Position numbers and translations under genes: made by a program
The notes under the pieces: generated by a model
Told to the model about the DNA's origin: nothing
Seen by the model: the letters and a program-made list of their open reading frames with translations, nothing else
Databases searched by the model: none
Part shown: piece after piece, positions 4,201 through 20,078 of the stretch
How the letters are laid out: each line of letters opens with the position of its first letter
Position numbering within the stretch: position 1 is the stretch's first letter
From: Poseidonia sp.
GTDB taxonomy: Archaea; Thermoplasmatota; Poseidoniia; Poseidoniales; Poseidoniaceae
Direction: 5' to 3'
DNA: 64,000 nt
Assembly (NCBI GenBank): GCA_965661285.1
Contig: CBFIDD010000001.1
Span: 64,001 to 128,000 of the forward strand

Positions 4201-5269
4201 AGTTGTTGTTGAAACTGTTGAGGCTGTCGCCGTCGCGGTACCCCCATGTCATGAACAGCACGGTTTCAGCACCTTCGTCTTCGATGGCGTTGCTGATGTT
4301 AACCGATGCGTTCTTGCTTTGCTGCCACATCAATTCTGTGGTCGGGAACGAGGGGACCTGGCTTTGGTCTTGAAGGATGACGTAATCCCAGTTTGAGCCT
4401 CGCAGCGTGGTGTTCCATTGATGTCCGGAAGTGTTCACGTTTTGCCAGTGTGCAGGGAGCTTCATCCCCCCGGCGGTAACCGATTGGACGGTGGCGTTGT
4501 AGCCGTCTGCGTCCATGATGCCTTCAACCACGGACGCCAAATTGTTGGCGTTGGTGTAACTGTTCCCCATCATCATCACCGAAACCGAAGCAGTGGTGGT
4601 GTTGGTCGTGCCGTTGGTGCCGTTGGAGTTCCCTTCGTCGTCATCGCTTGAGTTTCCGGAGGAATTCTCAGAGGAACTGTTGGTGTGGTTCGCCCACCAT
4701 GCGGCCAGGTCGGGTTGAACTTCGACATCGAGAAGGAAGGTGTCGGTGACCGAACCCAAATTTTGTGCGTTGAAACTCACGTTGGTGCTTTCACCGGCCG
4801 CCAAGGACAGCAGTGGAGAGCCCGAAACGCTCAACGAGGGATGGTAAGCGGGAGCGACCGAGACAAGTACGGTGAGAAACGTTGAGACACCTGCGTCCGG
4901 CTCCGTGACGTTGACAACAAAGGAACCGCTGTCCGCCACCGTCGCACCCTCTGTCAGACGAACGACGAGCGTGGTGTTCTTTGACCACGTCGGGAACACA
5001 TTGGACACCGTGGTTTCAACCGGTTGAACACTCCACGGTGATGCGAGGCCTGCCAAATCAACACTCACGTTATAGGATTCGATGGCTGAGGCGTTGTTTT
5101 CAATGGTGAGCGTGATGTTGGTGGTCTGTCCCGGTTCAAGGACGACGTGTTGCATGTCAACCGTCAGCAGGATGGAGTCGTCCGCCGCGACTGGCATCAC
5201 GAGGGGCGTGAGGCTCATGGCCATCAAGACGAGAACACAGAACACAGCACGGCCTGCACGGCTGGACAT
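1262..5269 (-). CDS. Large membrane-anchored surface protein: NEW3/CARDB-like Ig repeats with an inserted SGNH hydrolase domain, a C-terminal TM helix and a cytoplasmic Zn ribbon
   Basis: Signal peptide; repeated N-x-G-N/T-x-x-D motifs; GNSYT...QDQS...DGSHPS SGNH motifs; TM LGLMGAGWLVAIVAIQLL followed by RRR; acidic linker; CPSC...CPQC at the end. Confidence 0.8.
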   Translation of the reverse strand: MSSRAGRAVFCVLVLMAMSLTPLVMPVAADDSILLTVDMQHVVLEPGQTTNITLTIENNASAIESYNVSVDLAGLASPWSVQPVETTVSNVFPTWSKNTTLVVRLTEGATVADSGSFVVNVTEPDAGVSTFLTVLVSVAPAYHPSLSVSGSPLLSLAAGESTNVSFNAQNLGSVTDTFLLDVEVQPDLAAWWANHTNSSSENSSGNSSDDDEGNSNGTNGTTNTTTASVSVMMMGNSYTNANNLASVVEGIMDADGYNATVQSVTAGGMKLPAHWQNVNTSGHQWNTTLRGSNWDYVILQDQSQVPSFPTTELMWQQSKNASVNISNAIEDEGAETVLFMTWGYRDGDSLNSFNNNFTSMQARLTEGYTRYAENISNAGNSVWIAPVGLAYKTVHDDVVADGDDPTASGNLFYDLYAADGSHPSLSGSYLAACVFHSSTTGETCVGSNDTVNLNANVKLALQQAADDTVFNQTAGMSYYPWEVSGTAAFGLGSSIPQGWYIQWQDDELANIPAGDGEPATLSITVPSDAAPDFYGFRLTIGSTNGNITSSTIIVVGVEAEPSLSTAFLRQDDVFLPGASTTTAVQVTNTGNAPLDLDWTLDMPSTVASTPCTSSLVTPQLLDLQPGAVGEVEIMVDVSENADGSATCPMVLTAHYDVEDASMVLDELTFNVEIDENVSFALAGPMATVDIVPNTGANYEIRLNNHGSDEATFFLDIVESAGLTTVLVSASGITVAAGGAGTWTVNTKGDASLSGMLQQTFSTAYSGQTSQLDVDIHLLEVDGLNILPPSDTRVLVTPGATATHTVVLENTGTSNLSLTPALSGLPSAVDVDFDIEAFGLDRNEQQAVVLTLSASNSATPGSSSAVLTYTSGSMSVAYEFEVVVVEREEIVVNTVQQRLLAGPASVSSSVVEATNLGTNGDVYLVEWTTESQGDWFEFTISPTTFQLSSGSTQSISVDVREVSSGAPDIGVVYTLRVVSTTNAAVHDEVAMTIQPVSASANLSVLTDVSTAAPSGSVYGTLRLTNTGNTEDTFSISTVGVDCGLDLSVTVPAGLASEPLGWSCVVPNDADAGQRALTFRAVSTVRSNVVVEYSTLYTVEADWPGDSLVAVSFVDGRLSLGVDSSTTTILTVQNLGNADVTGTLDAFGQDTGLVVLVWERLSDGEATTDYALTPGSSVDFQLTVVSNTARTAATELTVRATSTGGGVLTTDESIPLPVSIEGPALPPNGLALPLGVSVSQPATLGLMGAGWLVAIVAIQLLRRRSPKEEELGGDDVEEEEAEEEKDVPELGYNECRMDGDSKVNCPSCDARLGVPRGSTPPFRFSCPQCENKIRVVE

Positions 5270-6816: not shown

Positions 6817-7503
6817 TCATCCGAACAGGAGGATGTACCCGACGGCAAAGACCACCACATCGCACATGGCATGGGTGATGTAGGGAATCCAGATGCTTCG
6901 GTAGCGAACGTAGAGCCAACTGAACGCCGCTCCCCCAACGAACAGACCGAGGCAGGCCAAGAGGTTGGCTGTCAGGGAAAATCCGAGGAACCACAGGGCG
7001 AAAAAATGGTGCACCACGAAAACAAAAGCCGATGCGAAAATGGTCGGCCAGCCAGGGCCAAAAACAACCTCGCCTTTCTCAACGAGGAACCATCGAAACA
7101 CGTATTCCTCCAACACCGAATTTCCAACGGTCCAAAACACCGCCGCCGCAAGGTAGGTGCTGGGGTTGGTCAATCCGAAGGGTTCAAGGGTCAAGCGAAA
7201 CGTTTCGAGGTCCACACGAGACGCACCAATGAGGAACCATGCGAGCACCATGATGACGCAAAAAACAACCCCCATGGCCGTTGCCGCGACGATACCGCCG
7301 TTGTTGACCGGCGACCACGACCATGGTTTTCGGTCGACCTTGAGATGCCACCACAGCGGCAGGCCAAGCATCCAAGCCTTTGACAAAAACCATGCGAGTT
7401 GTCCCAGCAGACCTTCCCCCGTACCGAAGGACGTCAAAATGGAGGCGGTGGGGGCCAAGCCAACCAAAACGAGGGCCAGCCATGCCAGTCGTTTTTCCGA
7501 CAC
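6817..7503 (-). CDS. CPBP (CAAX protease/Abi) family intramembrane metalloprotease
   Basis: EEYVFR, FVVHH and HAMCD motifs, with multiple TM helices. Start taken at GTG 7503 after a GAGGTG SD; the longer track ORF overlaps the divergent gene. Confidence 0.8.
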   Translation of the reverse strand: MSEKRLAWLALVLVGLAPTASILTSFGTGEGLLGQLAWFLSKAWMLGLPLWWHLKVDRKPWSWSPVNNGGIVAATAMGVVFCVIMVLAWFLIGASRVDLETFRLTLEPFGLTNPSTYLAAAVFWTVGNSVLEEYVFRWFLVEKGEVVFGPGWPTIFASAFVFVVHHFFALWFLGFSLTANLLACLGLFVGGAAFSWLYVRYRSIWIPYITHAMCDVVVFAVGYILLFG

Positions 7504-7629
7504 GCCATGCACCTCATTCGATGAGCCGACATCATTGATGTTGGCCTTTCCGTGCTCCCCTCCTTGGTTTGTAAGCCCTTTCCCATCGTGCAGCACAAGC
7601 ATCATAGCCCAACCTCTCGTGTTTGTGGC

Positions 7630-8376
7630 ATGGCCGTTGACCGGGTGCAATGGGGGGCAGAGGCCTGGCAGTTTGCGGACCTCTACATGCCCGACGATCC
7701 CTCCCCGTTCCAGAAAGACGAGGGGATTCCCTGCGTCATGCTCATCCACGGTGGATTTTGGAAAGCGAAGTACACGCTCGACCTCATGCAGCCCATCGCT
7801 GAAGACCTGGCGGAAGCCGGTGTGGCTGCATGGAACGTTGAATTCAAGCGATGGTCACCCGATGAGGAGGGGGTGTGGATGGACACCCTCTCGGATGTGC
7901 TACGAGCGTGGGGCCACCTCGGCTTGCTGCGCGGCATCGACATCGCCCGCTCCATGGTGATGGGCCATTCGGCAGGCGGGCAACTCGCGCTCTTGATGAG
8001 CGCCAAGGCGGAACGAAAACCATGGCTGGCCGTGGCCCAAGCGCCCCTCACCGATTTGGTGGGTGCTGACCACGCATCGCTTTCCGACGAAGGTGATGCT
8101 GTTCGACGGTGGATTGGCTGCGCACCGGAAAGCAATCCAACCTTGTGGAGTCAACTCAACCCCGTTGACCATCCGCCGAAAACCAGCGTGTTGCTGTTTC
8201 ATGGCGAGGAGGACGTCGACGTTCCTCTTGAGCAATCCGAAACCTACGCCCGAGTGATGAAGGCCAAGGGCGCCGATGTCCAGAAGGTATGGCTTCCCGG
8301 CAATCACTACGACATCATTGACGTGGCTTCCGACGATTGGCTGGTTCAACTCAACACCGTCCTCGACTGGTTGTAA
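7630..8376 (+). CDS. Alpha/beta hydrolase, HSL/BD-FAE/arylformamidase-like
   Basis: HGGFW oxyanion motif, GHSAGG nucleophile elbow, HGEEDVDVP acid, GNHY histidine. Confidence 0.85.
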   Translation: MAVDRVQWGAEAWQFADLYMPDDPSPFQKDEGIPCVMLIHGGFWKAKYTLDLMQPIAEDLAEAGVAAWNVEFKRWSPDEEGVWMDTLSDVLRAWGHLGLLRGIDIARSMVMGHSAGGQLALLMSAKAERKPWLAVAQAPLTDLVGADHASLSDEGDAVRRWIGCAPESNPTLWSQLNPVDHPPKTSVLLFHGEEDVDVPLEQSETYARVMKAKGADVQKVWLPGNHYDIIDVASDDWLVQLNTVLDWL

Positions 8377-8457
8377 AACCAACAACCGCATCCGACGATG
8401 ACCTCCTGCTTTTGGCCGCATCCCAAGGCCTATGACCTATGGGGAATTCCACCGCTC

Positions 8458-9273
8458 ATGGACCTCCTCGGCAGCGACTACCCGTTTCTCCCAACCGCCC
8501 TCGAGGGCAAGCACGCCTTTGTTTGCGGTGCGAGCAAAGGCATCGGTGAAGCCACTGCGAAAATGATGGCCAAAGCCGGTGCCCATGTGACGGTGTGTGC
8601 GCGAAACGGTGCTGCGTTGACCGCCCTGTGCGAGGAACTTGATCGCCTCGGTTCAGGCCGACACCAGGCGCTGATGCTCGATTTGGAAGAAACGGACAGC
8701 ATCGCATCGGCCTTTGACTCCGCTGTGGAGACGCTCGGCCCGGTTCACATCCTCATCAACAACGCCGGCGGCCCACCTGGAGGACCCCTGCTGAACAACG
8801 AAGTGGGCGACTTTGAAGCCCCGTTCCGCCGCCACCTTCACGCCGCTCACACCTTGGTCAAAGCCGCTGCCCCCGGGATGGAAGCAGCCGGCTACGGCCG
8901 CATCATCCAAATCATCTCAACATCGGTGAAAGAACCCATTCCAAACATTGGCCTGTCCAATACACTCCGAGGCGCCATGGCGTCGTGGGCCAAATCCATG
9001 TCCAACGAACTGGCGCCCTGCATCACCATCAACAACGTGCTGCCTGGATTCACCGACACCGACCGACTGGGCAACCTTTCCGCATCCATTCAGGAACGGA
9101 CAGGTAAATCTGCCGCCGATGTTCGAGCAGGCTGGTTGAACCAAGTGCCCATCGGCCGCCTCATCGACCCGCTTGAGACCGCCAGTGCCATCACATACCT
9201 CAGCCTGCCAGCCTCCGGTGGTATTCGAGGCGTGAGCTTGGCGGTTGATGGCGGACGACTTCGCTCCATCTGA
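8458..9273 (+). CDS. Short-chain dehydrogenase/reductase (GGPP subtype)
   Basis: CGASKGIG Rossmann motif, NNAGGPPGG, STSVKEPI..LSNTLR (no canonical YxxxK), NNVLPG, VDGG. Confidence 0.88.
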   Translation: MDLLGSDYPFLPTALEGKHAFVCGASKGIGEATAKMMAKAGAHVTVCARNGAALTALCEELDRLGSGRHQALMLDLEETDSIASAFDSAVETLGPVHILINNAGGPPGGPLLNNEVGDFEAPFRRHLHAAHTLVKAAAPGMEAAGYGRIIQIISTSVKEPIPNIGLSNTLRGAMASWAKSMSNELAPCITINNVLPGFTDTDRLGNLSASIQERTGKSAADVRAGWLNQVPIGRLIDPLETASAITYLSLPASGGIRGVSLAVDGGRLRSI

Positions 9274-9282
9274 GGTGAAATC

Positions 9283-10131
9283 ATGGATGCCGAAGTCTCC
9301 CCTGAAATGGCTGCTCAAGTGCTGAGTATGCTCACAGACGGCGGGTCAATGGACCACATCAACACTTCCTTGGCCCTTCACTTGATTCCTCTCGCACAGG
9401 AACTCGACGACCACGAACTGGTGGAGCAGCTCTTGGAACACGCCAGGAACATCGCCTCCAACGACGAAGAGCGAGGGTGGGCGAAATTTGAGGCCCTCAA
9501 GGTGATGGAAGCGAAGATCGAAAGTTATCTCCCCCTCGCTGAAGAAGCCGAGCAACTCGAAGGTGCACAAGCGCTCTCAGCAGCGGTCAATCACTACGTG
9601 GCTCTGCTCTATCTGGCAGAAGACCGGCTGGACGAAGCCCGGGCAACCGCCCAACATGCGCTTCGCCTTCGCCACCTGCTCGAAGACAAGCAAGGCCTCT
9701 CGTACGGCATGGCGCTCCTGATGGCTATCGCCAAGCGGCAACACGATGAGGAGACGGCCATCGCGGTTGGAACGGAACGATTGGAATTGCTCATGACCCT
9801 CAAAGACGAGGAAGGCCAAATGGAGGTTCTGGCAGATTTGGCCCACAGTCAAGCGACCATCGGCGAGTTCAACACCGCACAGGACCTGTTCGAACAATCC
9901 TTGGAACGAGCCAAGGCCTTGGGAAGCCTCTCGGGTCAACTGGTTGCGAGGTGGGGGCTGGCGGATTTGGCCGAGATACGCGAAGACTACCAAGCCGCCA
10001 TGCTGGTCCTCTCCGATGCACTCCACGAATTCATCGGCGAAGACTTGGCCGCCCCTGCACAACTCAAACAACGCATCAACGATTTGACCAACCTGAAGGA
10101 CAAGCCAAACCCGAGCGGCGACGAAGCCTAG
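9283..10131 (+). CDS. TPR-like helical repeat protein
   Basis: Repeated helix pairs (LADLAHSQATIGEFNTAQDLFEQSLE; LADLAEIREDYQAAM); GAGGTG SD upstream. Confidence 0.7.
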   Translation: MDAEVSPEMAAQVLSMLTDGGSMDHINTSLALHLIPLAQELDDHELVEQLLEHARNIASNDEERGWAKFEALKVMEAKIESYLPLAEEAEQLEGAQALSAAVNHYVALLYLAEDRLDEARATAQHALRLRHLLEDKQGLSYGMALLMAIAKRQHDEETAIAVGTERLELLMTLKDEEGQMEVLADLAHSQATIGEFNTAQDLFEQSLERAKALGSLSGQLVARWGLADLAEIREDYQAAMLVLSDALHEFIGEDLAAPAQLKQRINDLTNLKDKPNPSGDEA

Positions 10132-10183
10132 TGCTCCACACCCATTATGAGCCATGGCGGTTTGGGAAGAACGGTGAGTGAAC

Positions 10184-11434
10184 ATGGAGCATGACATCTT
10201 CTTCTCCATCTCACAAACCCCTGATGAAGACGGCCATATTCCATCCGAGGCCACGATGTTGCGGAATTATTTCCAGCAACTGGAATGCGCTGACCGTCTT
10301 GGTTTCGGCGTGGGATGGATTGCTCAAGCCCACCTCTCAACCGAGACCCAGAAGTCAAACCAACGTCCGGTCGTGCCCCATTGGAAGGGCGAGGTTGGGC
10401 TCTGCACCGACTTTCCTCAACTCGCTTTGGAATCGTTTCGCCGCACCAACCGCATCGAAATTGGCAGCGCAGTGGTGTCCATTCTCGCCTCCGGAGGCCC
10501 CATCGCTCAGGCCGAACGCATGGCGAACCTCTTGAGCCTGCACGGCCTTGATGAGGACGAACACCGATGCTTGCACGTCGGGTTCTCAGCAGGGCGGTTT
10601 GAATTCATGGCCCGGCCCTATGGCGTCGTGCCCCGCAACGCGATTGAGGAAGCCGCGTGGCCGGCCCTACGAGGTCAAATCTTCATGGAGGCCGCCGAGA
10701 TTTTCCTGCGATTGTTGCGTGGCGACGTCATCAACTCCACCATGATTCGACCCACCGTGTTGACCCGAGCAAACTTCCGAAGCGATGGGGATTGGGAGGC
10801 CGTCCAAGACGCAGCGGTTGAATTTGAGGCGCTCGAAACGAGGCCTGAATCCATTGCGATTCCATCGAAGTACGTGTTTGAAGACCTCAAAATCATTCCA
10901 ACTGAGTTCCGTCGGTCGTTGTTGAAATTGGTCGCAGGCACGCACGACCCTCGAGCACAAACCTTCGTGAACAGCATTCTTCCCGTGAAGGTCTTCAACC
11001 TCTCCATCACCTCGCCCGAGGTCATTGATGCGACGCACGAGCGCATGCGGGAAGTCTACCACCCCGACGGCGGTGCTTGGAAGCGTAGCGACATGCCCCG
11101 AACGAGTTTTGTGTTCTTGAACGCCGAGGCCGGATTGACGCCGGAAGAACAGAGTGCTGCGGCGCAAATTGAAGCCGACCAGGCCCTCAGCGCTTACTGG
11201 AACGCACTCGAGGGGACCATCGACCCGGACAAGGTTTCCAAAGCCGCCAACAACGCTCTCATCGGCAACGTCGAAGAGGTGGCCCAACAGATGGTCGAAC
11301 GGTTCCACCCCGAGGACCGCATCATGGCGTGGTTTGATTTCTTCAACCACGATTCAGAACGTGTCTGCCGAAACATGACGGCCTACATGGAACAGGTGGT
11401 GCCACTGGTTGAGACGATGCTCAAGGAGGCGTAA
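10184..11434 (+). CDS. LLM-class (luciferase-like) flavin-dependent oxidoreductase
   Basis: ADRLGF..GWIAQAH, RTNRIEIGSAV, PIAQAE, GFSAGR, and C-terminal LIGNVEEV pattern of the luciferase-like TIM barrel. Confidence 0.75.
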   Translation: MEHDIFFSISQTPDEDGHIPSEATMLRNYFQQLECADRLGFGVGWIAQAHLSTETQKSNQRPVVPHWKGEVGLCTDFPQLALESFRRTNRIEIGSAVVSILASGGPIAQAERMANLLSLHGLDEDEHRCLHVGFSAGRFEFMARPYGVVPRNAIEEAAWPALRGQIFMEAAEIFLRLLRGDVINSTMIRPTVLTRANFRSDGDWEAVQDAAVEFEALETRPESIAIPSKYVFEDLKIIPTEFRRSLLKLVAGTHDPRAQTFVNSILPVKVFNLSITSPEVIDATHERMREVYHPDGGAWKRSDMPRTSFVFLNAEAGLTPEEQSAAAQIEADQALSAYWNALEGTIDPDKVSKAANNALIGNVEEVAQQMVERFHPEDRIMAWFDFFNHDSERVCRNMTAYMEQVVPLVETMLKEA

Positions 11435-11436
11435 TC

Positions 11437-12555
11437 ATGGGGGTTCACCACGATACTTTTTCGGCCGTTCAACCCGGAAAACCCGGCTCTGCCATGTACC
11501 CCGAATCGCCGCTGGGCGAAAAGGTCGAAGGCATCCCGACCGGCCGGGATGTTGACTGGGAGCCGCTCGTGGACTATCGCCGAAACGGTGTCTCGGAAAC
11601 CACCATTCATGGTGCCGTCGCTTGGGCGCACGGCGACGAAGTGATCCACTCCTTTGGAGGCGACGTCCTCTGCTACGGCCGCTCAATGATGAAGCCCTTC
11701 ATGCTGAAAGCGTTCACGGACGAACTCGAAGATTGTTCATGGGAACAGAAGGCCATCGCCGTCGCCTCGCACAACGGCGACACCGAACACGTCGCGGCCG
11801 CCCAATCGCTGCTCAGCGAATCTGAATGGCCACTGATGCTCACGCCGCTGGATGTGCCACTGATTCAATTCGGGCGACAGGTTCGGCGGCCACGGCGCTG
11901 GTTTCACACCTGTTCGGGTGAACATGCAGCCATTCTGCGAGGCTGTCGCATGAAAGGCTGGAAGCGGGCCGGCTACACGCTACCAACGCACGAAGTCTTC
12001 CACGCCTACATGGAACAGTTGCGCACCTACCTCGGCGAGGATTGGGAGCCTCTTCGCATCGCCAAAGACGGTTGCGGCTTACCAACCGTCTCCAACACCG
12101 TCTCTGAATTGGCACAGATTTACGCCGGTCTGGTCCGCGACAAGGACGACGACTGGATTTGGGAAGCCATGGTACGACACCCCGACCTTGTGGGTGGATT
12201 CAATCGCCTCGATTCCACCGTCCTCAAAGCGGGGGAAGGCCGCGTCATCGCCAAGGAAGGCGCCGATGGTTTGCTTGGCATGGCCATTGAACACCCCGAC
12301 TATCCCAAAGGGCTGGGCATCGTCGTGAAAATTGCTCATGGTTGGAACTCCCAGGCCACATGGTATGTCGCAAGGGCGTTGCTGGGTGTGCTCGGCATCA
12401 ACTTGCGGAACCCCTACCCGCTCCACCGCCAAAAGGCGTTCATCGTCCCGGGCATCGTGCCCGAACGCTATGTTGAGGTCCTCGAAACCGTACCGACATG
12501 GGACGAATGGGACCCCGACCAGGACCGTTGGCATTTCGACCATGAGGTGAGTTGA
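11437..12555 (+). CDS. L-asparaginase II (class 3) family amidohydrolase
   Basis: RSMMKPF, ASHNG, CSGEH, DGCGLP and AKEGADG motifs; GGAGG SD upstream. Confidence 0.8.
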   Translation: MGVHHDTFSAVQPGKPGSAMYPESPLGEKVEGIPTGRDVDWEPLVDYRRNGVSETTIHGAVAWAHGDEVIHSFGGDVLCYGRSMMKPFMLKAFTDELEDCSWEQKAIAVASHNGDTEHVAAAQSLLSESEWPLMLTPLDVPLIQFGRQVRRPRRWFHTCSGEHAAILRGCRMKGWKRAGYTLPTHEVFHAYMEQLRTYLGEDWEPLRIAKDGCGLPTVSNTVSELAQIYAGLVRDKDDDWIWEAMVRHPDLVGGFNRLDSTVLKAGEGRVIAKEGADGLLGMAIEHPDYPKGLGIVVKIAHGWNSQATWYVARALLGVLGINLRNPYPLHRQKAFIVPGIVPERYVEVLETVPTWDEWDPDQDRWHFDHEVS

Positions 12556-14003
12556 TGAAGCCGATCATGAACTTCATCAACGGCGAATTTCAGCCCGCTG
12601 CTTCCGGAGCGGTCATGGAAACGGTCAATCCGGCTACAGGCGAAAGCATCACCACCCTGCCACGCTCCAACGCTGAAGATGTGGCACTCGCCACACGGGC
12701 CGCCCTCGAAGCAGGACCGGCATGGGCCGCCACGAGCCTCGAAGAACGCATGGCCTGGCTTCACCGCATCGCTGATGCGCTCGAGGAGGAGGCTGAAACC
12801 ATTGCACAACTCGAAAGCATGGACACCGGGAAACCCATCGCATTGGCCCGCCAAGTTGACGCTGCTCGTTCCGTGGCAAATTTCCGTTTTTTCGCTGACT
12901 TTGGACGCGACCACACCGAGCCGACCTTCGTTGACCATGGGGCCATCAACCACGTGCACCGCTCACCGGTCGGCTGCGTTGGACTCATCACGCCGTGGAA
13001 TCTCCCCCTCTACTTGCTCACCTGGAAAGTCGCGCCCGCCTTGTTGATGGGCAACACCATCGTGGCCAAACCCTCGGAACTGACCCCGATGACCGCCAAC
13101 CACCTCGCCAAGGTGCTGAAGCGTCTCGACTTTCCAAAGGGCGTTTTCAACCTCGTACACGGTCTTGGCCCCGAGGTGGGACAGGCCATTGTTGAACACC
13201 CAGACATACGAGGTATCTCCTTCACCGGCGGCACGGCCACGGGGAAAATCGTCGCTGCCACAGCCGCTCCGATGTTCAAGAAACTCTCCCTTGAACTCGG
13301 CGGAAAAAACGCCACCATCGTTCTGGCCGATGCACCGCTTGATTCGGTCATGGACGGGATCGTCCGAGCCTCGTTTACCAACTCCGGACAGGTGTGCTTG
13401 TGCGGCTCACGTGTGCTGGTGGACGCCACCATCTACGACCGCTTCAAGGCCAAGTTTATCGAAGCCGTCAACGGCATCGTCGTTGGCGACCCCACCAAGG
13501 AGAACACGGTCATGGGGTCGGTGATCTCCTCGGACCACCAAGCCAAAGTCGAATCGTACATCGAACTCGGCCGGCAAGAAGGCGGTACGGTGTTGACCGG
13601 TGGGCTGGCTTCTGAGGCACCGGTGGAGGGTGTCTCACCAAACGGAGCCTTTCTTCGACCGACCGTCATTGAAGGCTTGAGCCACACCACTCGCACCGCC
13701 ACCGAGGAAATCTTCGGGCCGGTGGTCACCCTTCATGCCTTCACCACGGAAGACGAAGCTGTTGCGATGGCCAACGCCACCGAATACGGCTTGGCAGGTT
13801 CGGTGTGGACGGCCGATGTGGAGCATGGACACGCCTTTGCGCAACGAATTGATACCGGCATCGTCTGGGTGAACACGTGGCTCAACCGAGACTTGCGGAC
13901 ACCCTTCGGCGGCGTCAAACAATCGGGAGTGGGAAGGGAAGGCGGTGCATGGTCGCTGAACTTTTTCTCTGAATTGACCAACATCTGTGTTCAGCAACCC
14001 TGA
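12552..14003 (+). CDS. amnC: Aldehyde dehydrogenase, 2-aminomuconate/2-hydroxymuconate semialdehyde dehydrogenase (ALDH8) type
   Basis: PWNLPLYLLTWKVAPAL, FTGGT, LELGGKN, GQVCLCGSR, EEIFGPV, WLNRDLRTPFGG..SGVGREGG. Confidence 0.8.
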   Translation: MMKPIMNFINGEFQPAASGAVMETVNPATGESITTLPRSNAEDVALATRAALEAGPAWAATSLEERMAWLHRIADALEEEAETIAQLESMDTGKPIALARQVDAARSVANFRFFADFGRDHTEPTFVDHGAINHVHRSPVGCVGLITPWNLPLYLLTWKVAPALLMGNTIVAKPSELTPMTANHLAKVLKRLDFPKGVFNLVHGLGPEVGQAIVEHPDIRGISFTGGTATGKIVAATAAPMFKKLSLELGGKNATIVLADAPLDSVMDGIVRASFTNSGQVCLCGSRVLVDATIYDRFKAKFIEAVNGIVVGDPTKENTVMGSVISSDHQAKVESYIELGRQEGGTVLTGGLASEAPVEGVSPNGAFLRPTVIEGLSHTTRTATEEIFGPVVTLHAFTTEDEAVAMANATEYGLAGSVWTADVEHGHAFAQRIDTGIVWVNTWLNRDLRTPFGGVKQSGVGREGGAWSLNFFSELTNICVQQP

Positions 14004-14041
14004 GAACACATGTTCAAATGCTAGCCAAGCGGAGGCAAACC

Positions 14042-14770
14042 ATGGACGACAAAGCCCTTCCGCTGTTCGTCCTGCCCATGGTCTTGTTTCCCGGTGAACT
14101 TCAGGAACTGCGTGTGTTTGAACCAAGGTACCGACAGATGCTGGATACCTGCATTTTGGATGAGCGCCCGTTTGGTTTGGTGATGAACGACCCCTTCGCA
14201 CCCACCAACGGTTGGGATGGCCCCCGGCCGCACGGATGCGAGGCCATCATTCTCAATCACGAGACACGGGGCGTAAATCATTTCATCACCATCACCGGAG
14301 GACGTCGTTTCTTTGTCGAAGAGGTCATTGAGCCAGCACTCCCTCCGTTTTCTGACCCGTCCATGGCCACGCTGGTTGAAGAAGGATTAACCCCGGACGT
14401 CGACACCTTGCTGCAACATCTTCCGGAAGACGCCAACCACAGCAAATTGTACATCTCTGCCAAGGTCAACTACCTCGAGGAGGTGGGCGAATTGAACGAG
14501 GACGACAAAGGGTTCTTGCGCACACTGACCCGAACCATCGTCCACCGTGCGGGCCGCGGCATGAACGTGGACGTCGATGTGTTGGACGGCTGGGTCGAAT
14601 CCATCTGTGAGGAACAAATCTCTGAGCGAAAAGAGTCCATCTACAACATCGCCGCCTTGTGCCTTAACGACTTGGAAGGGCGTCAACAACTGCTGGCGAG
14701 TGCCAACGCAGAAGAGGCCCTGCACGAGCTTCAAAACCAAGTCTTTGGCTTCGCTGGCGAGGCAGAATAA
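14042..14770 (+). CDS. Stand-alone Lon peptidase substrate-binding (LON_N) domain protein
   Basis: [13 protein letters not shown]...[13 protein letters not shown]...FGLV signature; no AAA+ or protease domain. Confidence 0.8.
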
Positions 14771-14813
14771 CCGCAGGCGACGAGTTCAAAACACCGTGAG
14801 CGGTGGAACCGCT

Positions 14814-15635
14814 ATGTCCGTTTACAGCGAAGCGCGGAAAGTCACCACGCACACGCTTCAGGAAATGAAGCGCGCAGGTGAGAAAATCACCATGCTCACC
14901 GCCTACGACTATTCCCTGGCGCGACTTGTCGACCAGGCGGGTGTTGATGTCATTCTTGTTGGCGACTCCGCCTCCAACGTCATGGCAGGCCAAGTCACCA
15001 CGGTGCCGATGACCCTCGACCACATGATCTACCACGCCCAATGCGTTGAGCGGGCCGTTGACCGCGCCCTCCTCGTGGTGGACATGCCGTTTGGCTCCTA
15101 CCAGGGCAATTCTCGCCAAGCCCTTGAGTCGGCCATTCGCATCATGAAAGAATCGAGCGGCCACGCCGTCAAACTGGAAGGTGGCGCTGAAATCGTGGAA
15201 TCCATTGAACGCATCTTAACCGCCGGCATCCCCGTCATGGGACATCTCGGATTGACCCCACAGTCCATCTACAAATTTGGCACCTACTCCGTCCGTGCCA
15301 AAGAAGAGGAGGAAGCGGAGAAGTTGATCGCCGACGCCAAGGTGTTGGAGGCTGCTGGATGCTTTGCCATCGTGCTTGAAAAAATTCCACGCGAACTCGC
15401 CAAGCGTGTCTCGCAAGCCCTAACCATTCCCACCATCGGCATCGGTGCTGGGCCTGATGTGGACGGGCAAGTGCTCGTGCTTCACGACCTGTTGGGCATC
15501 ACGATGGACTTCTCTCCACGCTTCCTTCGCCGCTACCTCAACCTCGCAGAGGACATCGACGGGGCCATCAAGGGATACTGTGCCGATGTGCGCTCCGGGG
15601 ACTTTCCCAACGACGATGAATCGTACACCTCGTGA
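14814..15635 (+). CDS. panB: 3-methyl-2-oxobutanoate hydroxymethyltransferase
   Basis: [49 protein letters not shown]. Confidence 0.95.
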
Positions 15636-16130
15636 TCACATCAGCAGGCTGAAGTACAACAGCGAGCCACCCAAGGCCCCGATGTTCACGCCCATGGTGT
15701 GCCAAATGGCGAGCCGAAACGGAGGCAAGTGAAAACGCCACCATGAGGTGCTGACCCATATCCACAACACGGTGGCGAGATAGCCACCGCACACAAACCC
15801 ACCCATACCGGTGGACCAGACGAACAACAGCGGTACGCCGAGTGCGGCAATGCCGCCGAGATAGTCCAACCACATGGATTGGGGATGCGGCGTCAGCCAG
15901 CGGTGAAGCAACGGGGAAAAGAGCATCATGATGAGCAATCCGCCCTGAGGTGGATTGGGCAAGCCGTAGGTCAAATGCGGGGAAACCGTGGCCTGCCAAA
16001 CGGCACCTGCGACCATACCAAACAGCGTGGGGAACATGACGTTGACCCACGTTTCGGACCAGGTTGCGGAGACGGGTTGCTGAACGAGGAGTTCAGTCGA
16101 AGGGGACGCTTCGGCCTCTCCCGCTTCCAT
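15636..16130 (-). CDS. Hypothetical multi-pass membrane protein
   Basis: About five hydrophobic segments; start taken at ATG 16130 with a TATA-like element ~25 nt upstream; fills the gap between panB and the dioxygenase. Confidence 0.65.
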   Translation of the reverse strand: MEAGEAEASPSTELLVQQPVSATWSETWVNVMFPTLFGMVAGAVWQATVSPHLTYGLPNPPQGGLLIMMLFSPLLHRWLTPHPQSMWLDYLGGIAALGVPLLFVWSTGMGGFVCGGYLATVLWIWVSTSWWRFHLPPFRLAIWHTMGVNIGALGGSLLYFSLLM

Positions 16131-16200
16131 GTGTAGACCCAATCCTGCCGCTTGTTTAGGGCTTCGTGTTGACCTTGGCTTGGTGGGGTGCCGATGATGA

Positions 16201-16208
16201 ATTAAACC
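16201..16208 (+). promoter_or_regulatory. Putative TATA box for a leaderless amnB-amnA/ridA transcript
   Basis: ATTAAACC ends 19 nt before the ATG at 16228, with no SD. The same spacing recurs at other operon-first genes (e.g. CTTAACAT before 476, CTTAAAGG before 46193). Confidence 0.5.
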
Positions 16209-16227
16209 TCGGTGCAGTGCGACATCC

Positions 16228-17130
16228 ATGGGCAAAGGCCAGATTGTCGCTGGATGCATTGCACCGCATCCGCCACACCTTGTGTATGCGGAAAACCCCC
16301 CTCAGAACGAGCCGGTCGCTGAAGGTGGTTGGGAACAACTGCGCTGGGGCTATGAACGCCTCCGTGCCTCCCTTGCCCAGCATGATTACGACGCCATCGT
16401 TCTTCTCTCACCGCACTGGCAAACCTACGTTGGCACCCATTTTCTCGGTCTGCCGCATTTTGAGGGGCTTTCGGTCGACCCGATTTTCCCCAATCTCTTT
16501 CGCTACCACTACGACATGAACGTGGACGTCGAACTTGCGAAGGCCATCCATGACGAAGCGGCCAAAGCTGGGCTGCCGGTGAAGATGATGGAAAATCCTG
16601 ACTTCCGTGTTGACTACGGTACCATCACCACCGGGCACCTGTTCAACCCCGAATGGGACAAACCGCTCGTGGTGATTTCCAGTAACCGCTCCACGGCCTA
16701 CTACTCGGTCGAGGTCATGCAAGAAATCATGATCGAACTCGGAAAAGTCACCCGCAAGGCCATTGAGGCCAGCGGAAAGAAGGTCGTGGTCCTCGCCAGC
16801 AATTCACTCTCCCACCGCCACTTCACCACCGAATCGGAGGTTCCCGAAGACATGAGCAAAGAACACATCACCAGCCACGCCATGCATCTGTGGGACATGC
16901 GGATGATCGATTACATGCGCAGCGGACAAGCCCAACGCATTCTTGACGAAATGCCCGAATTCACCGAACAGGCCATCGCAGAGAGCGACGGTGGCGGCCT
17001 CTCATGGCTGCTCTCCGCCCTGGATGTCCCGGATTACCCAGCCATCCTCCACGGCTATGGCACCATCATCGGGACCGGAAACGCCGTGGTCGAATGGCCC
17101 TGTTATGCTCACGAGGTGAACGACGCATGA
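16228..17130 (+). CDS. amnB: 2-aminophenol 1,6-dioxygenase beta (catalytic) subunit, LigB-type extradiol dioxygenase
   Basis: APHPPHLVYAENPPQNEP..EGGWEQLRW.YER N-terminus characteristic of AmnB/CnbCb; SPHW, VDYGT, SLSHRHF, E.DGG, YGTIIGTGNAV. Confidence 0.88.
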   Translation: MGKGQIVAGCIAPHPPHLVYAENPPQNEPVAEGGWEQLRWGYERLRASLAQHDYDAIVLLSPHWQTYVGTHFLGLPHFEGLSVDPIFPNLFRYHYDMNVDVELAKAIHDEAAKAGLPVKMMENPDFRVDYGTITTGHLFNPEWDKPLVVISSNRSTAYYSVEVMQEIMIELGKVTRKAIEASGKKVVVLASNSLSHRHFTTESEVPEDMSKEHITSHAMHLWDMRMIDYMRSGQAQRILDEMPEFTEQAIAESDGGGLSWLLSALDVPDYPAILHGYGTIIGTGNAVVEWPCYAHEVNDA

Positions 17131-18572
17131 GTGCAGGCGACGTGGTGGCCTCGTTTGTTGTGCCCGTTCACCCCCATACGGTGCTGGCGCCCGACCAAAG
17201 CCCGGGATGGCGCCGATTGCGAGACGCATTCGACGAAGCCGCTCAAACCATTCGCGACCTCGAAGCGGATTTGCTCATCATCTACTCGACCACATGGCCC
17301 TCCATCATCGGCCATCAAATCCAAGCCGACCCCAATCCCGAGTGGGTCATGGTGGACCACGATTTCCACGACCTTGGCTCCATTCCCTATTCGTTCAACA
17401 TCGACGCTGAATTCGCCCACGCGTGGAACGAAGCCAACGAAAAGCGAGGCCTCCAGAGCCGCTGTGTGAACTACAAGGGCTTCCCCATCGATGTCGGTTC
17501 CGTGGTGGCACTCACGCTGCTCAATCCCGACAACACCATCCCGGCCGTCATCGTCTCCTCAAACATGTACGCCAACCGGAGCGAGACAACGGTGCTGGCC
17601 AAGTCCTGCCTTGACGTGGTGAAAGCCCAAGGACGCCGCGCGGTGGCCATCACCGCCATGTCCCTCTCCAACCGGATGTTCACCGATTTCATCCAGCCTG
17701 AGGAGGACAAGATTCACTCCCTCAAGGACGACGAGTGGAACAGGAAAATATTGGAATTCCTCGAACAGGGACGCCTGGAAGATGTCGGTCAACTTTCGCG
17801 GACCATCCACCGTCAAATTCGAGTGCAAAAAGTGGTCGCGTTCAAGCCCATGTGGTGGCTTTCGGCGATGAACGGAAATCGCAACGATTTGACCGGGCGC
17901 GTCATGGCCTACGAGGCCATCCACGGTGCTGGAGGTGCCGTTGTTCACCTCGACCCAACGCCATCAGGTGCAGGGGACAAGGAATACGACGAGGATGATG
18001 TGGAGTATTTCCACGGCGAGCGTGGTGTGCTTGACGCAGGGGCGGACGACGTCGATTCGCCAACAGCGTCCGAGCCGGCCGAGGCTGGCAGCGAAGAGCC
18101 AGCATCCGTGACACAAGCCAACGGCCCCGCCTTGTGGGACCCAACCCAAGCCGAGGGTTCGGTCAACACCGAGGCAGCGCCAAAACCGGTGGGCGCCTAC
18201 CCGCACGCTCGGAAAGTGGGCGATATGCTCTACCTTTCCGGCGTTGGTCCTCGGCAACCCGGCACCAACGCCATCCCCGGAGGACCGATTCACGACGAGG
18301 ACGGCGATCCACTTGACTACGATATCAAAGCGCAGACACACGCTGTCGTGGAAAACATCCGCCGTATCGTCGAAGAAGCCGGAGCTCGGTTTGACCAGAT
18401 CGTGGATGTCACCACCTTCCTCGTTGACATGAAGCGGGATTTCGCGGGGTACAACGAAGTGTGGGCTGAAACCCTTGGAACGGTTGGGCCCACCCGCACC
18501 ACCCTTGCCATCGATGCGCTACCAACGCCCATCGCGGTGGAGATGAAGGTCATCGTCCACCTCGGGGAATGA
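17127..18572 (+). CDS. amnA: Fusion of a 2-aminophenol 1,6-dioxygenase alpha-like subunit and a RidA-family (2-aminomuconate deaminase-like) domain
   Basis: ATGA overlap with amnB. The N-terminal LigB-fold domain has YSTTW in place of the metal His, plus GFPIDVG and EDKI...DD.WN. An acidic/Pro linker follows, then PVGAYPHARKVG.MLYLSGVGPR...RTT..IDALPTPIAVEMK (RidA). Confidence 0.82.
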   Translation: MSAGDVVASFVVPVHPHTVLAPDQSPGWRRLRDAFDEAAQTIRDLEADLLIIYSTTWPSIIGHQIQADPNPEWVMVDHDFHDLGSIPYSFNIDAEFAHAWNEANEKRGLQSRCVNYKGFPIDVGSVVALTLLNPDNTIPAVIVSSNMYANRSETTVLAKSCLDVVKAQGRRAVAITAMSLSNRMFTDFIQPEEDKIHSLKDDEWNRKILEFLEQGRLEDVGQLSRTIHRQIRVQKVVAFKPMWWLSAMNGNRNDLTGRVMAYEAIHGAGGAVVHLDPTPSGAGDKEYDEDDVEYFHGERGVLDAGADDVDSPTASEPAEAGSEEPASVTQANGPALWDPTQAEGSVNTEAAPKPVGAYPHARKVGDMLYLSGVGPRQPGTNAIPGGPIHDEDGDPLDYDIKAQTHAVVENIRRIVEEAGARFDQIVDVTTFLVDMKRDFAGYNEVWAETLGTVGPTRTTLAIDALPTPIAVEMKVIVHLGE

Positions 18573-18680
18573 TTTCCGGAATCCGGCGTTTGTTTATCGA
18601 ATACATACAAATTGCTAATATCCTTTGGCGATTATCACGAAACAACACAGCATTCTGGTGTTAGAAATCGGGGAATGTTC

Positions 18681-20078
18681 ATGGGTGTTGATAAAACCGT
18701 TGAATTGGCTCGTAGCATTGGCCTGAAAACGCTGGTCGTCCTCTCGCTATCTTCCATGTTGGGTTCCGGCCTGTTTTTGCTTCCGGCCTTTGCACAGGAA
18801 GTTGTAGGCCCCGGCATGTGGTTTGCGTTCCTGCTGGCCGGAAGCGTCGTCATCGCCAGCGCCTACTCAAAGGCCGAACTGGCGAGCGCCATGCCCCAGT
18901 CTGGCGGATTCTACGTGTACGCCGAGCGAACGTACGGACATTTGGTGGGCACCATCAGTGGTTTGGGCCTCTTTGCATCCTTTATGCTAAAATCCGCTTT
19001 TGCCCTTGTTGGTTTTGCAGCGTATATGGAGGTCATCACAACCCACTTTGGCATTGATGATGTGAATTCAAAAGCCATCGCCATGGTCCTTCTCGTCCTC
19101 ATTTTGGTCGTGAACATCACCGGCGTGAAAGCCATCAAGAAAGTGCAGGTGCCCATCGTTACCGGTGCGGTCGCTACCGTCGTCCTCCTGTGTATCATGG
19201 CGTTGTTTTCCAATGATTTGGACCTCAGTCGACCCGTACAAGACTTCCAACCGGTCAGTCTGAAGATGGGCACTGCTGCTGCACTGGTCTTTGTCGCCTT
19301 TTCAGGTGCCATCAAAGTTGGTGCTATCGGCGGCGAAGTGCTCGACCCGGAAACAAACCTCCCACGTGGCATGATTCAGTCCCTGTTCATCGCCACCGCC
19401 CTTTACGCCGTCGTCGCCTACATCATGGTGGCCGTCATGGCGCCGGACTGGTACATGACCGACGGTCATGCAGTTGAAAATCCAATCAGCGTCTTTGCCG
19501 ACTCGGTCGCCGGCACCACTGTGGTACTGCTCGCCTCCTTCGTCGCCATCATCGCCATGGCTTCAATGGCCCTGGCGGGCGTGCTTTCGTCCTCTCGGTT
19601 CATCTATGCCATGGCCAAGGACGGCGTCCTTCCAGCCCCGCTCGCTGAGTTGAACGAACGCTACAAGACGCCTCACTGGCCAATTTTGTTGACGGGGTTG
19701 TTGATGGCGATCTCCATCTATTCCTTCGATGTCCATGTCATTGCAGAACTTGCCTCCGGATTCATCCTCATGGTCTTCATCGTGCTCAACTTGACCGTCG
19801 TGGTGCTTCGTGGTGCAGAACCAAGGCATGCTTGGGACCCACCTTACCGTTCACCTTTGTATCCAATTCCGCAAATCTACGGAACCATTGCGGGAATTGC
19901 AATGTTGATTCTCATGGGGGAAAAGGCGCTTTATGGCGGTCTGGGCGCCGTCGCCATCGGTATGTTGGCGTGGTACGCCTACGGTCGTCGAAACGTCAAA
20001 CCTCGTGAAGGCGAAACGCCACTCAATGCGTTCTTGAACCGTGATGGAGAGCCATCGACTCCAAAAGAGCAAGAATAA
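18681..20078 (+). CDS. APC family amino acid/polyamine permease
   Basis: MLGSGLF, ELASAMPQSGGFY, GGEVLDP..NLPR, SRFIYAMAKDG..P, PYRSPLYP; about 12 TM helices. Confidence 0.9.
   Translation: MGVDKTVELARSIGLKTLVVLSLSSMLGSGLFLLPAFAQEVVGPGMWFAFLLAGSVVIASAYSKAELASAMPQSGGFYVYAERTYGHLVGTISGLGLFASFMLKSAFALVGFAAYMEVITTHFGIDDVNSKAIAMVLLVLILVVNITGVKAIKKVQVPIVTGAVATVVLLCIMALFSNDLDLSRPVQDFQPVSLKMGTAAALVFVAFSGAIKVGAIGGEVLDPETNLPRGMIQSLFIATALYAVVAYIMVAVMAPDWYMTDGHAVENPISVFADSVAGTTVVLLASFVAIIAMASMALAGVLSSSRFIYAMAKDGVLPAPLAELNERYKTPHWPILLTGLLMAISIYSFDVHVIAELASGFILMVFIVLNLTVVVLRGAEPRHAWDPPYRSPLYPIPQIYGTIAGIAMLILMGEKALYGGLGAVAIGMLAWYAYGRRNVKPREGETPLNAFLNRDGEPSTPKEQE

Follow-up and report, generated by a model that had tools for sequence, protein, structure and literature searches.

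A conserved gene cluster of Marine Group II archaea with a predicted 2-aminophenol cleavage module and a probable role in kynureninase-independent tryptophan degradation

The window analysed here is a stretch of 64,000 nucleotides (contig CBFIDD010000001.1, positions 64,001 to 128,000) from Candidatus Poseidonia, a Marine Group II archaeon whose genome assembly comprises 1.98 Mb in 8 contigs. In surface-ocean plankton, archaea of this group rank with the most abundant ones. Between positions 7630 and 20078 lies a gene cluster that an earlier note on this DNA had read as a candidate system for the catabolism of 2-aminophenol. Open reading frame (ORF) listing and Pfam and NCBIfam scans recovered all nine genes named in that note, in the order given there and with coordinates matching the gene ends. 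The list was incomplete, since three further genes, for a LON N-terminal domain protein (LON-N protein), PanB and an antisense membrane ORF, lie between the aldehyde dehydrogenase (ALDH) gene and amnB. The near-identical database proteins among the matches listed are from Poseidoniales, at identities of at least 86%. The genes of the cluster are as follows.

7630..8376, plus strand: alpha/beta hydrolase (BD-FAE / Peptidase_S9 / Abhydrolase_3 by Pfam)
8398..9273, plus strand: short-chain dehydrogenase/reductase (SDR; Pfam adh_short 130.7 bits, adh_short_C2 125.8 bits)
9283..10131, plus strand: TPR-repeat protein (Pfam TPR_12, 31.5 bits)
10178 (GTG)/10184..11434, plus strand: luciferase-like monooxygenase (LLM)-like protein of 418/416 residues, without a Pfam or NCBIfam match of its own
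11437..12555, plus strand: Asparaginase_II-family (AsnaseII-like) protein (PF06089, 163.7 bits)
12555..14003, plus strand: ALDH resembling 2-aminomuconate-6-semialdehyde dehydrogenase (AmnC/NbaE type; PDB search)
14018..14770, plus strand: stand-alone LON N-terminal (substrate-binding) domain protein (PF02190, 51.8 bits)
14814..15635, plus strand: PanB, 3-methyl-2-oxobutanoate hydroxymethyltransferase of pantothenate synthesis (PF02548, 382.9 bits; TIGR00222, 334.5 bits, over the cut-off)
15636..16259, minus strand: hydrophobic membrane ORF without a Pfam or NCBIfam match
16228..17130, plus strand: AmnB, beta subunit of a LigB-type extradiol dioxygenase (PDB search)
17127..18572, plus strand: AmnA-RidA fusion (LigB + RidA; PDB search and Pfam)
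18612..20078, plus strand: APC-family amino-acid permease (AA_permease_2, 138.2 bits; TIGR00909, 199.8 bits, below the cut-off)

The LLM and AsnaseII-like genes are separated by a 2-nt gap (11435-11436), the stop codon of the AsnaseII-like gene overlaps the start of the ALDH gene (TGATG, 12553-12557), and the amnB stop overlaps the amnA start (ATGA, 17127-17130). The overlapping start and stop codons and the 2-nt gap fit co-translation.

The best solved relatives of AmnB, AmnA, the ALDH and the RidA domain belong to the 2-aminophenol meta-cleavage pathway of Pseudomonas and Comamonas (AmnBA/CnbCaCb, AmnC/NbaE and AmnD-type RidA; solved references PDB 8ihg, 3vsg, 7txy, 4i1w and 6izh). In the PDB search, residues 1-291 of AmnB matched 8ihg_A (E 1.9e-110), 3vsg_B (2.9e-107) and 7txy_B (1.2e-93). 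His14, His63 and Glu252 of AmnB align with identical residues of 8ihg_A; these three are the predicted iron ligands, corresponding to those of the Comamonas CnbCab enzyme with the positions shifted by one. AmnA (residues ~1-280) matched 3vsg_A (E 6.6e-41) and 7txy_A (1.4e-39) and, adjacent to and paralogous with AmnB, is the predicted non-catalytic alpha subunit. An acidic linker joins AmnA to the RidA domain (residues ~345-481; PF01042, 85 bits), whose best solved relative is the 2-aminomuconate deaminase 6izh_A (E 1.7e-25; next RidA protein 7.4e-19). For the ALDH, each of the top seven PDB matches is a 2-aminomuconate 6-semialdehyde dehydrogenase (E 1.4e-137 to 8.9e-132). Against TIGR03216, the equivalog model of 2-hydroxymuconic semialdehyde dehydrogenase, the ALDH scored 542 bits and did not reach the cut-off of 693.25; by its score, it falls outside this sister family. 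As judged by sequence, AmnBA is predicted to cleave the ring of 2-aminophenol, and for all three steps from 2-aminophenol to 4-oxalocrotonate and ammonia the cluster appears to encode proteins closely related to characterised enzymes. As in the Pseudomonas/Comamonas systems, the beta gene precedes the alpha gene and the two are translationally coupled. Unlike those systems, this one belongs to an archaeon, carries an AmnA-deaminase fusion and is predicted to draw its 2-aminophenol from kynurenine instead of nitrobenzene; genes for the decarboxylase, hydratase, aldolase and acetaldehyde dehydrogenase were not found here.

Conservation within the order Poseidoniales was assessed in 41 genomes, of which 25 (our own among them) belong to the genus and 16 to two other families, and 20 loci fetched around amnB were compared by tblastn with the window proteins. 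AmnB was found in 39 of the 41 genomes, the LLM and the AsnaseII-like protein in 38 each, and tryptophan 2,3-dioxygenase (TDO) in 40. The full gene order of the window is present in five loci of the genus (L011, L012, L020, L023 and L030), which are those whose stretch spans the whole cluster. Three loci of another family (L015, L016 and L025) have the order SDR-LLM-AsnaseII-ALDH-...-AmnB-AmnA-(APC)-PanB, a fourth (L028) has the same order without an SDR match, and a third family shows AsnaseII-ALDH-AmnB-AmnA. The arrangement is not a matter of chance, as the order recurs in other genomes. Seven of the 20 loci carry AmnB-AmnA, mostly with APC and PanB, and give no match to the LLM, the AsnaseII-like protein or the ALDH in the fetched stretch. 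In each of the 41 genomes in which both could be located, the AsnaseII-like gene lies directly downstream of the LLM gene; in one genome (G039), this pair is about 125 kb from amnBA. The AmnA match extends to at least residue 476 in 12 of the 20 loci and ends near 305-309 in the other 8, in one of which (L013) RidA is encoded by a separate adjacent ORF.

The accessory genes vary more in position. The archaeal SDR gene is found upstream of the LLM gene, directly so in four Marine Group IIb (MGIIb)-type loci and with the TPR gene intervening in our own genus. The PDB matches of the SDR are generic SDRs; it was considered as an enoyl-reductase-like enzyme (converting 4-oxalocrotonate to 2-oxoadipate) or as a flavin reductase, and no evidence was found for either. 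Copies of the TPR protein with 62-85% identity occupy the same position in the five genus loci, and a 28% match lies upstream of the LLM gene in L028. The APC gene lies downstream of amnA in 16 of the 20 loci, next to it in 11 and separated by about 2.3-2.8 kb in 5, and its product is a candidate importer of tryptophan or kynurenine. In the MGIIb-type genome G039 (L013:13838-14857, minus strand), genes for a Ca2+-dependent PI-PLC-like phospholipase and an FKBP are located between amnBA-RidA and the APC gene.

The key evidence for a link of this cluster with tryptophan and kynurenine comes from bacterial loci. One genome per prokaryote species was scanned with a five-sequence alignment (A2) of distant LLM relatives, and the resulting 50 loci were compared by tblastn with the window proteins and the proteins of one bacterial locus (L069). 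The set leaves out the closest bacterial relatives of the archaeal LLM, which are a protein of a deltaproteobacterial metagenome-assembled genome (61%) and a Micromonosporaceae protein (49% identity). The loci are from Bdellovibrionota, Oligoflexales, Myxococcota/Polyangiaceae and Acidobacteriota/Thermoanaerobaculia, and the LLM match covers more than 40% of the query in 49 of them. Downstream sequence of at least 600 nt made 44 loci assessable for the neighbour of the LLM gene. In 39 of the 44, an AsnaseII-like gene of the same strand begins within 500 nt after the LLM gene; 3 have it at a distance of 4.4-5.7 kb downstream, and the remaining 2 (L052 and L063) lack it. In L037 and L044, which have slightly less room downstream, the start of the AsnaseII-like gene is visible too. 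The LLM gene and the AsnaseII-like gene form a constant pair.

The same loci tie this pair to tryptophan degradation. In 18 bacterial loci, a PF04199 domain (KynB-family 'cyclase') directly follows the AsnaseII-like part, and in 17 of these AsnaseII and KynB are encoded in a single ORF of 505-646 residues; both Pfam domains were confirmed in L069 and L073. A TDO gene is present in 14 loci, usually convergent and right after the AsnaseII-KynB fusion gene. Within 10 kb, AmnB was found in 7 loci, the ALDH in 9, RidA in 7, and a pair of FAA-hydrolase genes in 6; the FAA-hydrolase family is that of 4-oxalocrotonate decarboxylase and 2-oxopent-4-enoate hydratase. Three loci (L060, L069 and L081) display the order AmnB-AmnA-RidA-ALDH-FAAh-FAAh-LLM-...-(AsnaseII-KynB)-TDO, and most of it is seen in L070 and L071. 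The acidobacterial loci L074, L075 and L078 have LLM-AsnaseII-ALDH-AmnB, and the partial loci L077 and L083 are consistent with this in the parts that they share. These three are the nearest to the archaeal genes among the fetched loci (identities of 49-50% for the LLM, 62-64% for AsnaseII, 50-52% for the ALDH and 59% for AmnB), compared with 32-37% (LLM) and 26-35% (AsnaseII) for the other bacterial phyla. No SDR homologue was found in the 50 loci, and no APC homologue in the bacterial loci. The earlier note had proposed checking whether the LLM and asparaginase genes keep company with amnAB elsewhere. They do: outside the archaea, they travel with amnBA, ALDH and RidA, as well as with kynA, and the asparaginase part is fused to kynB. 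The note had derived the aminophenol from a tryptophan, kynurenine or anthranilate derivative or from an N-acyl aminophenol; the bacterial kynA and kynB links support kynurenine, and nothing supports anthranilate derivatives or N-acyl aminophenols.

The note had also suggested searching the genome for kynA, kynU, haaO and acmsd. TDO is present (G000:C3:140831-141934), among unrelated neighbours. Kynureninase (TIGR01814) was not found, the score in our own genome being 29.3 bits against a cut-off of 246.4, and none of the 41 order genomes exceeded this cut-off. No match in our own genome was obtained for 2-amino-3-carboxymuconate-6-semialdehyde decarboxylase (ACMSD; PF04909, Amidohydro_2) or for 3-hydroxyanthranilate dioxygenase (3-HAO; PF06052), the latter a weak blank because no control genome gave a match either; kynurenine 3-monooxygenase (KMO) was not searched for. 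The interpretation in the note, including its bypass of 3-HAO and ACMSD, holds in outline, and the route proposed here would replace KMO and kynureninase as well. TDO and the late enzyme 2-aminomuconate semialdehyde dehydrogenase are shared with the classical kynurenine pathway, and both routes converge on 2-aminomuconate semialdehyde; the LLM, the asparaginase-like hydrolase and AmnBA would replace the steps from kynurenine to this compound. An inseparable pair of flavin monooxygenase and asparaginase-family hydrolase, together with the lack of a detected kynureninase, calls for a kynureninase-free way from kynurenine to 2-aminophenol. We consider it very probable that the cluster is part of a kynureninase-independent tryptophan/kynurenine pathway through AmnBA. 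AmnBA was also considered as a substitute for 3-hydroxyanthranilate dioxygenase in NAD synthesis; this was rejected because no ACMSD-type decarboxylase was found and because the dehydrogenase and deaminase point to catabolism.

The distribution of kynureninase in bacteria was compared with that of AmnB in five genomes that have neither TDO nor AmnB at the LLM locus. TDO was located elsewhere in all five and AmnB in three. Kynureninase was over the cut-off in exactly the two genomes without AmnB and was not found in the three with AmnB, a pattern drawn from these five genomes only.

The LLM-like protein of the cluster itself has no Pfam match at E<=0.001, PF00296 included, and no NCBIfam match; database proteins identical to it over the match have 416 residues. 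The family is small, with 315 clusters at E<=0.001 among 1.84 billion representatives, many of them fragments. Its membership in the luciferase-like superfamily is suggested by several lines of evidence. A 15-member profile (A1) matched bacterial luciferases in the PDB (E 6.5e-6, 2e-5 and 9e-4). Homologues with 61% and 49% identity pass PF00296 (35.9 and 50.8 bits), as do the members of bacterial clusters. An alignment-based AlphaFold model (pLDDT 90.5, pTM 0.89), for which a single-sequence model with a pLDDT of 36 was discarded, matched luciferase-like TIM barrels in Foldseek with a probability of 1.0 and target-normalised TM-scores of 0.57-0.80 (2i7g, 7bip, 8k74, 8cbb and 1brl). The Foldseek matches include RslO1, luciferases, SsuD/MsuD, RutA, HcbA1, the F420-dependent Adf and Mer, and 3,6-diketocamphane monooxygenase, and the identity to any solved luciferase-like protein is 11-16%. 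CofD, a marker of F420 biosynthesis, was over the cut-off in none of the 41 order genomes, with a lone sub-threshold match in a genome with 6% contamination. A flavin oxygenase is therefore likelier than an F420 reductase, and the role of an F420-dependent reductase is disfavoured.

We propose that the LLM may be a Baeyer-Villiger oxygenase acting on kynurenine or N-formylkynurenine. The type II Baeyer-Villiger enzyme 3,6-diketocamphane monooxygenase (4uwm and 5aec) appears at ranks 26-27 of the Foldseek list, with E about 1e-10. It has the luciferase-like TIM-barrel fold in common with the LLM, and the proposed logic is the same, namely conversion of a ketone to an ester whose hydrolysis would then give a phenol. 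4-Hydroxyacetophenone monooxygenase and an esterase yield hydroquinone in this manner, a likeness by function only. The LLM differs from the type II enzymes in forming a small, separate family at the low identity given above, and its substrate would be an amino acid. Two further observations concern this family. A metagenomic relative (P0123), 46% identical over the first 211 residues, is predicted to have 1501 residues with GATase and ApbE (flavin transferase) domains, and is either a real fusion hinting at flavin handling or the product of gene-calling read-through. One relative within the genus has the LLM and AsnaseII-like genes twice: the copy at G008:C6:23613-25982 lies in pieces, with 7 TGA stops in the LLM match, and the intact copy is on contig C2; the broken copy is a decayed duplicate or the result of a mixed-strain bin or a frame-shifted assembly.

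The AsnaseII-like protein matches PF06089 over its full length (163.7 bits against a cut-off of 25) and asparaginases of the Rhizobium etli type in the PDB (E 2.5e-16). In 8 of 8 aligned archaeal and bacterial members, Ser-x-x-Lys (RS..KP), SHNG/SxS, two Cys and AKEGADGLL are invariant. RS..KP aligns with RSACKA of 8cly, and the motifs align with those of the R. etli enzymes. The class 3 L-asparaginases ReAV and ReAIV (7os3 and 8cly) thus have Ser-x-x-Lys, SHNG, two Cys and KxGAxG in common with the protein studied here. They act on a derivative of the aspartate side-chain carboxyl, and the same is proposed for the AsnaseII-like protein, which may hydrolyse a beta-aspartyl 2-aminophenyl ester or amide to L-aspartate and 2-aminophenol. 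The E value against the R. etli enzymes is only 2.5e-16, the AsnaseII-like protein is encoded beside the LLM and is often fused to KynB in bacteria, and an aspartyl aryl ester or anilide is proposed as its substrate, in place of the asparagine of ReAV and ReAIV. The gene context argues for a substrate other than L-asparagine.

The formamidase step appears to be filled by different proteins in different lineages. KynB (PF04199) was found in none of the 41 order genomes, our own included, so the formamidase of the order must be another protein. In our own genus, the candidate is the alpha/beta hydrolase at the head of the cluster, which carries an HGGFW oxyanion motif and a GHSAGG nucleophile motif. 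Its ORF opens at 7552, the likely ATG start is at 7630 and the end is at 8376; the start was taken as 7630 because, in relatives, matches extending upstream of residue ~19 are mostly interrupted by TGA stops. A CAAX-protease (Rce1-like) gene (6817-7749, minus strand) overlaps the ORF opening at 7552 by about 200 nt, and by about 120 nt when the ATG at 7630 is used. The HGGxW and GxSxG architecture is common to this hydrolase and the eukaryote-type kynurenine formamidase of Drosophila (4e11). Unlike the Drosophila enzyme, the best solved relative of the hydrolase is a carboxylesterase (E 9.6e-16), and the assignment follows operon position, not sequence. The hydrolase was found in 23 of the 24 genus genomes, with 1 weak match among the 16 genomes outside the genus, and it is not part of the conserved core. 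The earlier note had assigned the upper pathway to the LLM and two amide hydrolases. The pairing of the LLM with the AsnaseII-like protein is conserved, whereas the HGGxW hydrolase stands outside this core and more likely acts as an N-formylkynurenine formamidase than as an enzyme releasing aminophenol.

In four MGIIb-type loci, the SDR-LLM-AsnaseII-ALDH operon is headed by a Formyl_trans_N-like gene (~280 residues). It sits between the aspartyl-tRNA synthetase gene and the SDR gene, which is the slot of the alpha/beta hydrolase in our own genus.

L015:17324-18169: Formyl_trans_N-like gene
L016:5018-5773: Formyl_trans_N-like gene
L025:2431-3171: Formyl_trans_N-like gene
L034:12093-12866: Formyl_trans_N-like gene

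By tblastn, our own genome has no orthologue of this gene; the one match is a weak paralogue with 29% identity over 86 residues. The Formyl_trans_N-like protein is a candidate formyl-removing enzyme for N-formylkynurenine. Operon position, the HGGxW/GxSxG architecture and the weak match to 4e11 together suggest a non-orthologous displacement at the deformylation step.

Taken together, the genes could be arranged in the following route. TDO would convert tryptophan to N-formylkynurenine, and formate would be removed by the HGGFW alpha/beta hydrolase in our own genus, by the formyltransferase-like protein in the MGIIb-type archaea and by the AsnaseII-fused KynB in bacteria. Kynurenine is an aryl ketone, and Baeyer-Villiger migration of its electron-rich 2-aminophenyl group by flavoenzyme chemistry yields an aspartate ester. 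In a type II Baeyer-Villiger reaction, the LLM would place an oxygen atom between the ketone carbon and the aromatic ring of kynurenine (or N-formylkynurenine), giving the 4-(2-aminophenyl) ester of L-aspartate. This ester could undergo an O-to-N acyl shift to N4-(2-hydroxyphenyl)-asparagine. The asparaginase-II-like serine hydrolase would then split the beta-carboxyl derivative into L-aspartate and 2-aminophenol, a reaction analogous to that of its relatives on asparagine. Ring processing by AmnBA, the ALDH and the fused RidA deaminase would take 2-aminophenol to 4-oxalocrotonate and ammonia, and the APC permease probably imports the substrate. The AsnaseII-KynB fusion would fit two consecutive or alternative hydrolytic steps on one scaffold, with deformylation either before or after oxygen insertion. 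For the archaeal cluster, we hold this specific Baeyer-Villiger-plus-hydrolase mechanism on kynurenine to be reasonably probable. The wider proposal has a chance slightly above even: Marine Group II archaea, the predatory Bdellovibrionota, Oligoflexales and Myxococcota, and Acidobacteriota would share a third tryptophan route through a kynurenine Baeyer-Villiger LLM and an aspartyl aryl ester/anilide hydrolase, with 2-aminophenol as a natural central metabolite and with the formamidase step filled three times independently (by KynB, the formyltransferase-like protein and the alpha/beta hydrolase). Within such a pathway, the gain may mainly be the recovery of aspartate, formate and ammonia.

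A number of observations weigh against the kynurenine route or its details. TDO is unlinked to the cluster (contig C3 versus C1) and our own genome is 93% complete. Since the pathway genes are near-universal in the order, their co-occurrence within it is uninformative. The alpha/beta hydrolase matches the Drosophila formamidase (4e11_A) weakly (E 2.4e-4, residues 8-262, eighth in the list), and its nearest protein atlas clusters bear generic hydrolase names only. The Baeyer-Villiger step and the substrate of the hydrolase are deduced from gene context and family chemistry. No flavin reductase partner was seen in the cluster, and the genome was not searched for one. In the archaeal and acidobacterial subgroup of AsnaseII-like proteins, the Lys of CSGKHA is replaced by Glu (CSGEHA), and Lys is retained in the other bacterial members; this Lys is presumably one zinc ligand and part of the Cys-Lys-Cys metal site of the R. 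etli asparaginases, so that one presumed ligand residue differs here. Oligoflexales-type loci contain the LLM and AsnaseII genes only; neither kynA nor kynB nor any amn gene occurs within 10 kb, and in the three such genomes checked, TDO and AmnB were located elsewhere in the genome. Two large myxobacterial genomes (G044 and G045; loci L052 and L076) have the LLM, TDO and kynureninase and no AmnB match. L052 also has no adjacent AsnaseII-like gene, and L076 has one; these two genomes may use 2-aminophenol differently or run both routes. Lastly, our own genome has no DmpG-type aldolase and no 4-oxalocrotonate tautomerase, its single FAA_hydrolase is unlinked and lies beside an aminotransferase gene, and the bacterial FAA-hydrolase pair and KynB domain gave no match in it by tblastn. 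As lower meta-cleavage genes were not found in this genome, complete mineralisation is left unexplained.

Among the rival readings, the pathway might run through AmnBA by other chemistry. The LLM would then not be a Baeyer-Villiger enzyme; it might substitute for KMO and give 3-hydroxykynurenine, with AmnBA cleaving this compound or 3-hydroxyanthranilate, or it might perform a RutA-like or ipso-substitution cleavage, with the hydrolase acting on a later amide. The TDO and KynB links show only that the substrate is derived from tryptophan; RutA, alkanesulfonate monooxygenases, HcbA1 and luciferases score equally well or better in the fold search, and 3-hydroxykynurenine is itself an o-aminophenol. 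We nevertheless regard such a scheme as rather unlikely, because neither the ACMSD-type decarboxylase needed after cleavage of 3-hydroxyanthranilate nor a kynureninase to make this substrate was found, luciferase-like enzymes are rarely aromatic hydroxylases, and the asparaginase-family hydrolase, the most constant partner of the LLM, would have no role. Alternatively, the purpose might be biosynthesis of picolinate or a phenoxazinone, or the mere harvest of aspartate, formate and ammonia from kynurenine. 2-Aminomuconate semialdehyde cyclises spontaneously to picolinate, and both the missing lower meta-cleavage genes, with one unlinked FAA_hydrolase, and the two myxobacterial genomes with an LLM and without AmnB are in line with this idea. 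The semialdehyde dehydrogenase and the AmnA-fused deaminase argue for oxidation and deamination, not cyclisation, and the bacterial operons also contain a pair of FAA-hydrolase genes, as is typical for the decarboxylase and hydratase steps, so this purpose is improbable.

It is slightly less probable still that the cluster serves to degrade environmental 2-aminophenol, or N-acyl or N-aryl aminophenols from natural products or pollutants, with no connection to tryptophan. By the titles of the PDB entries, the amn/cnb/nbz clusters of the closest solved relatives serve the degradation of nitrobenzene, chloronitrobenzene and aminophenol, and the TDO gene of the archaeon is unlinked. Against this stand the KynB fusion in 17 bacterial loci and the adjacent TDO gene in 14, as well as the presence of the genes in 38-40 of the 41 genomes of a streamlined planktonic order, which is unlike a pollutant-degradation island. 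The view that the genes are not one functional unit, having become neighbours by chance or genome streamlining, could appeal to the interruption by the LON-N, panB and membrane ORF genes in our own genus, to the 7 of 20 order loci in which amnBA has no LLM, AsnaseII-like or ALDH match nearby, and to the distant LLM block of G039. It is strongly disfavoured, since four bacterial phyla have these families repeatedly side by side, at low sequence identity and with gene fusions.

If the kynurenine route is correct, the lower module would be of known type, and the upper module would consist of two new activities in known superfamilies, amounting to a new variant of tryptophan catabolism. This would be a new branch of the kynurenine pathway with a kynurenine Baeyer-Villiger monooxygenase and a beta-aspartyl-aminophenol hydrolase. 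It would give a natural reason for the wide distribution of 'xenobiotic' amnBA genes in uncontaminated oceans, and would assign a role to a small, orphan clade of LLMs as well as to a large part of the PF06089 proteins now annotated as asparaginases. For uncultured Marine Group II, it would define an amino-acid catabolic trait by which tryptophan or dissolved kynurenine would supply aspartate, formate and ammonia. A study of reef exometabolites measured kynurenine among them (PMC9723752). The literature searched, which did not cover subscription journals or bioRxiv supplements, contained no description of a route from kynurenine to 2-aminophenol. For 2-aminophenol or aminophenol in connection with Marine Group II or Poseidoniales, it yielded one amplicon study, which gives predicted pathways only (PMC12113859).

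The three genes between the ALDH gene and amnB look like passengers peculiar to the genus. At this position, the LON-N protein was matched by tblastn only in genus loci, and it is probably a passenger there. The panB start is the ATG at 14814, and in several other genera of the order, PanB follows the APC gene, either immediately or at a distance of up to a few kb. Counterparts of the minus-strand ORF (15636-16259) in the five genus loci are 48-80% identical to it, and the matches start between residues 2 and 31; the start of this ORF is uncertain because its 5' end overlaps amnB. The cluster is flanked by long minus-strand ORFs at 1262-5269 (1335 residues), 20581-23175 (864 residues) and 23188-32343 (3051 residues), which probably encode large surface proteins. 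The 864-residue ORF has a sub-threshold CarboxypepD_reg match only, and its paralogues recur beside the cluster in relatives.

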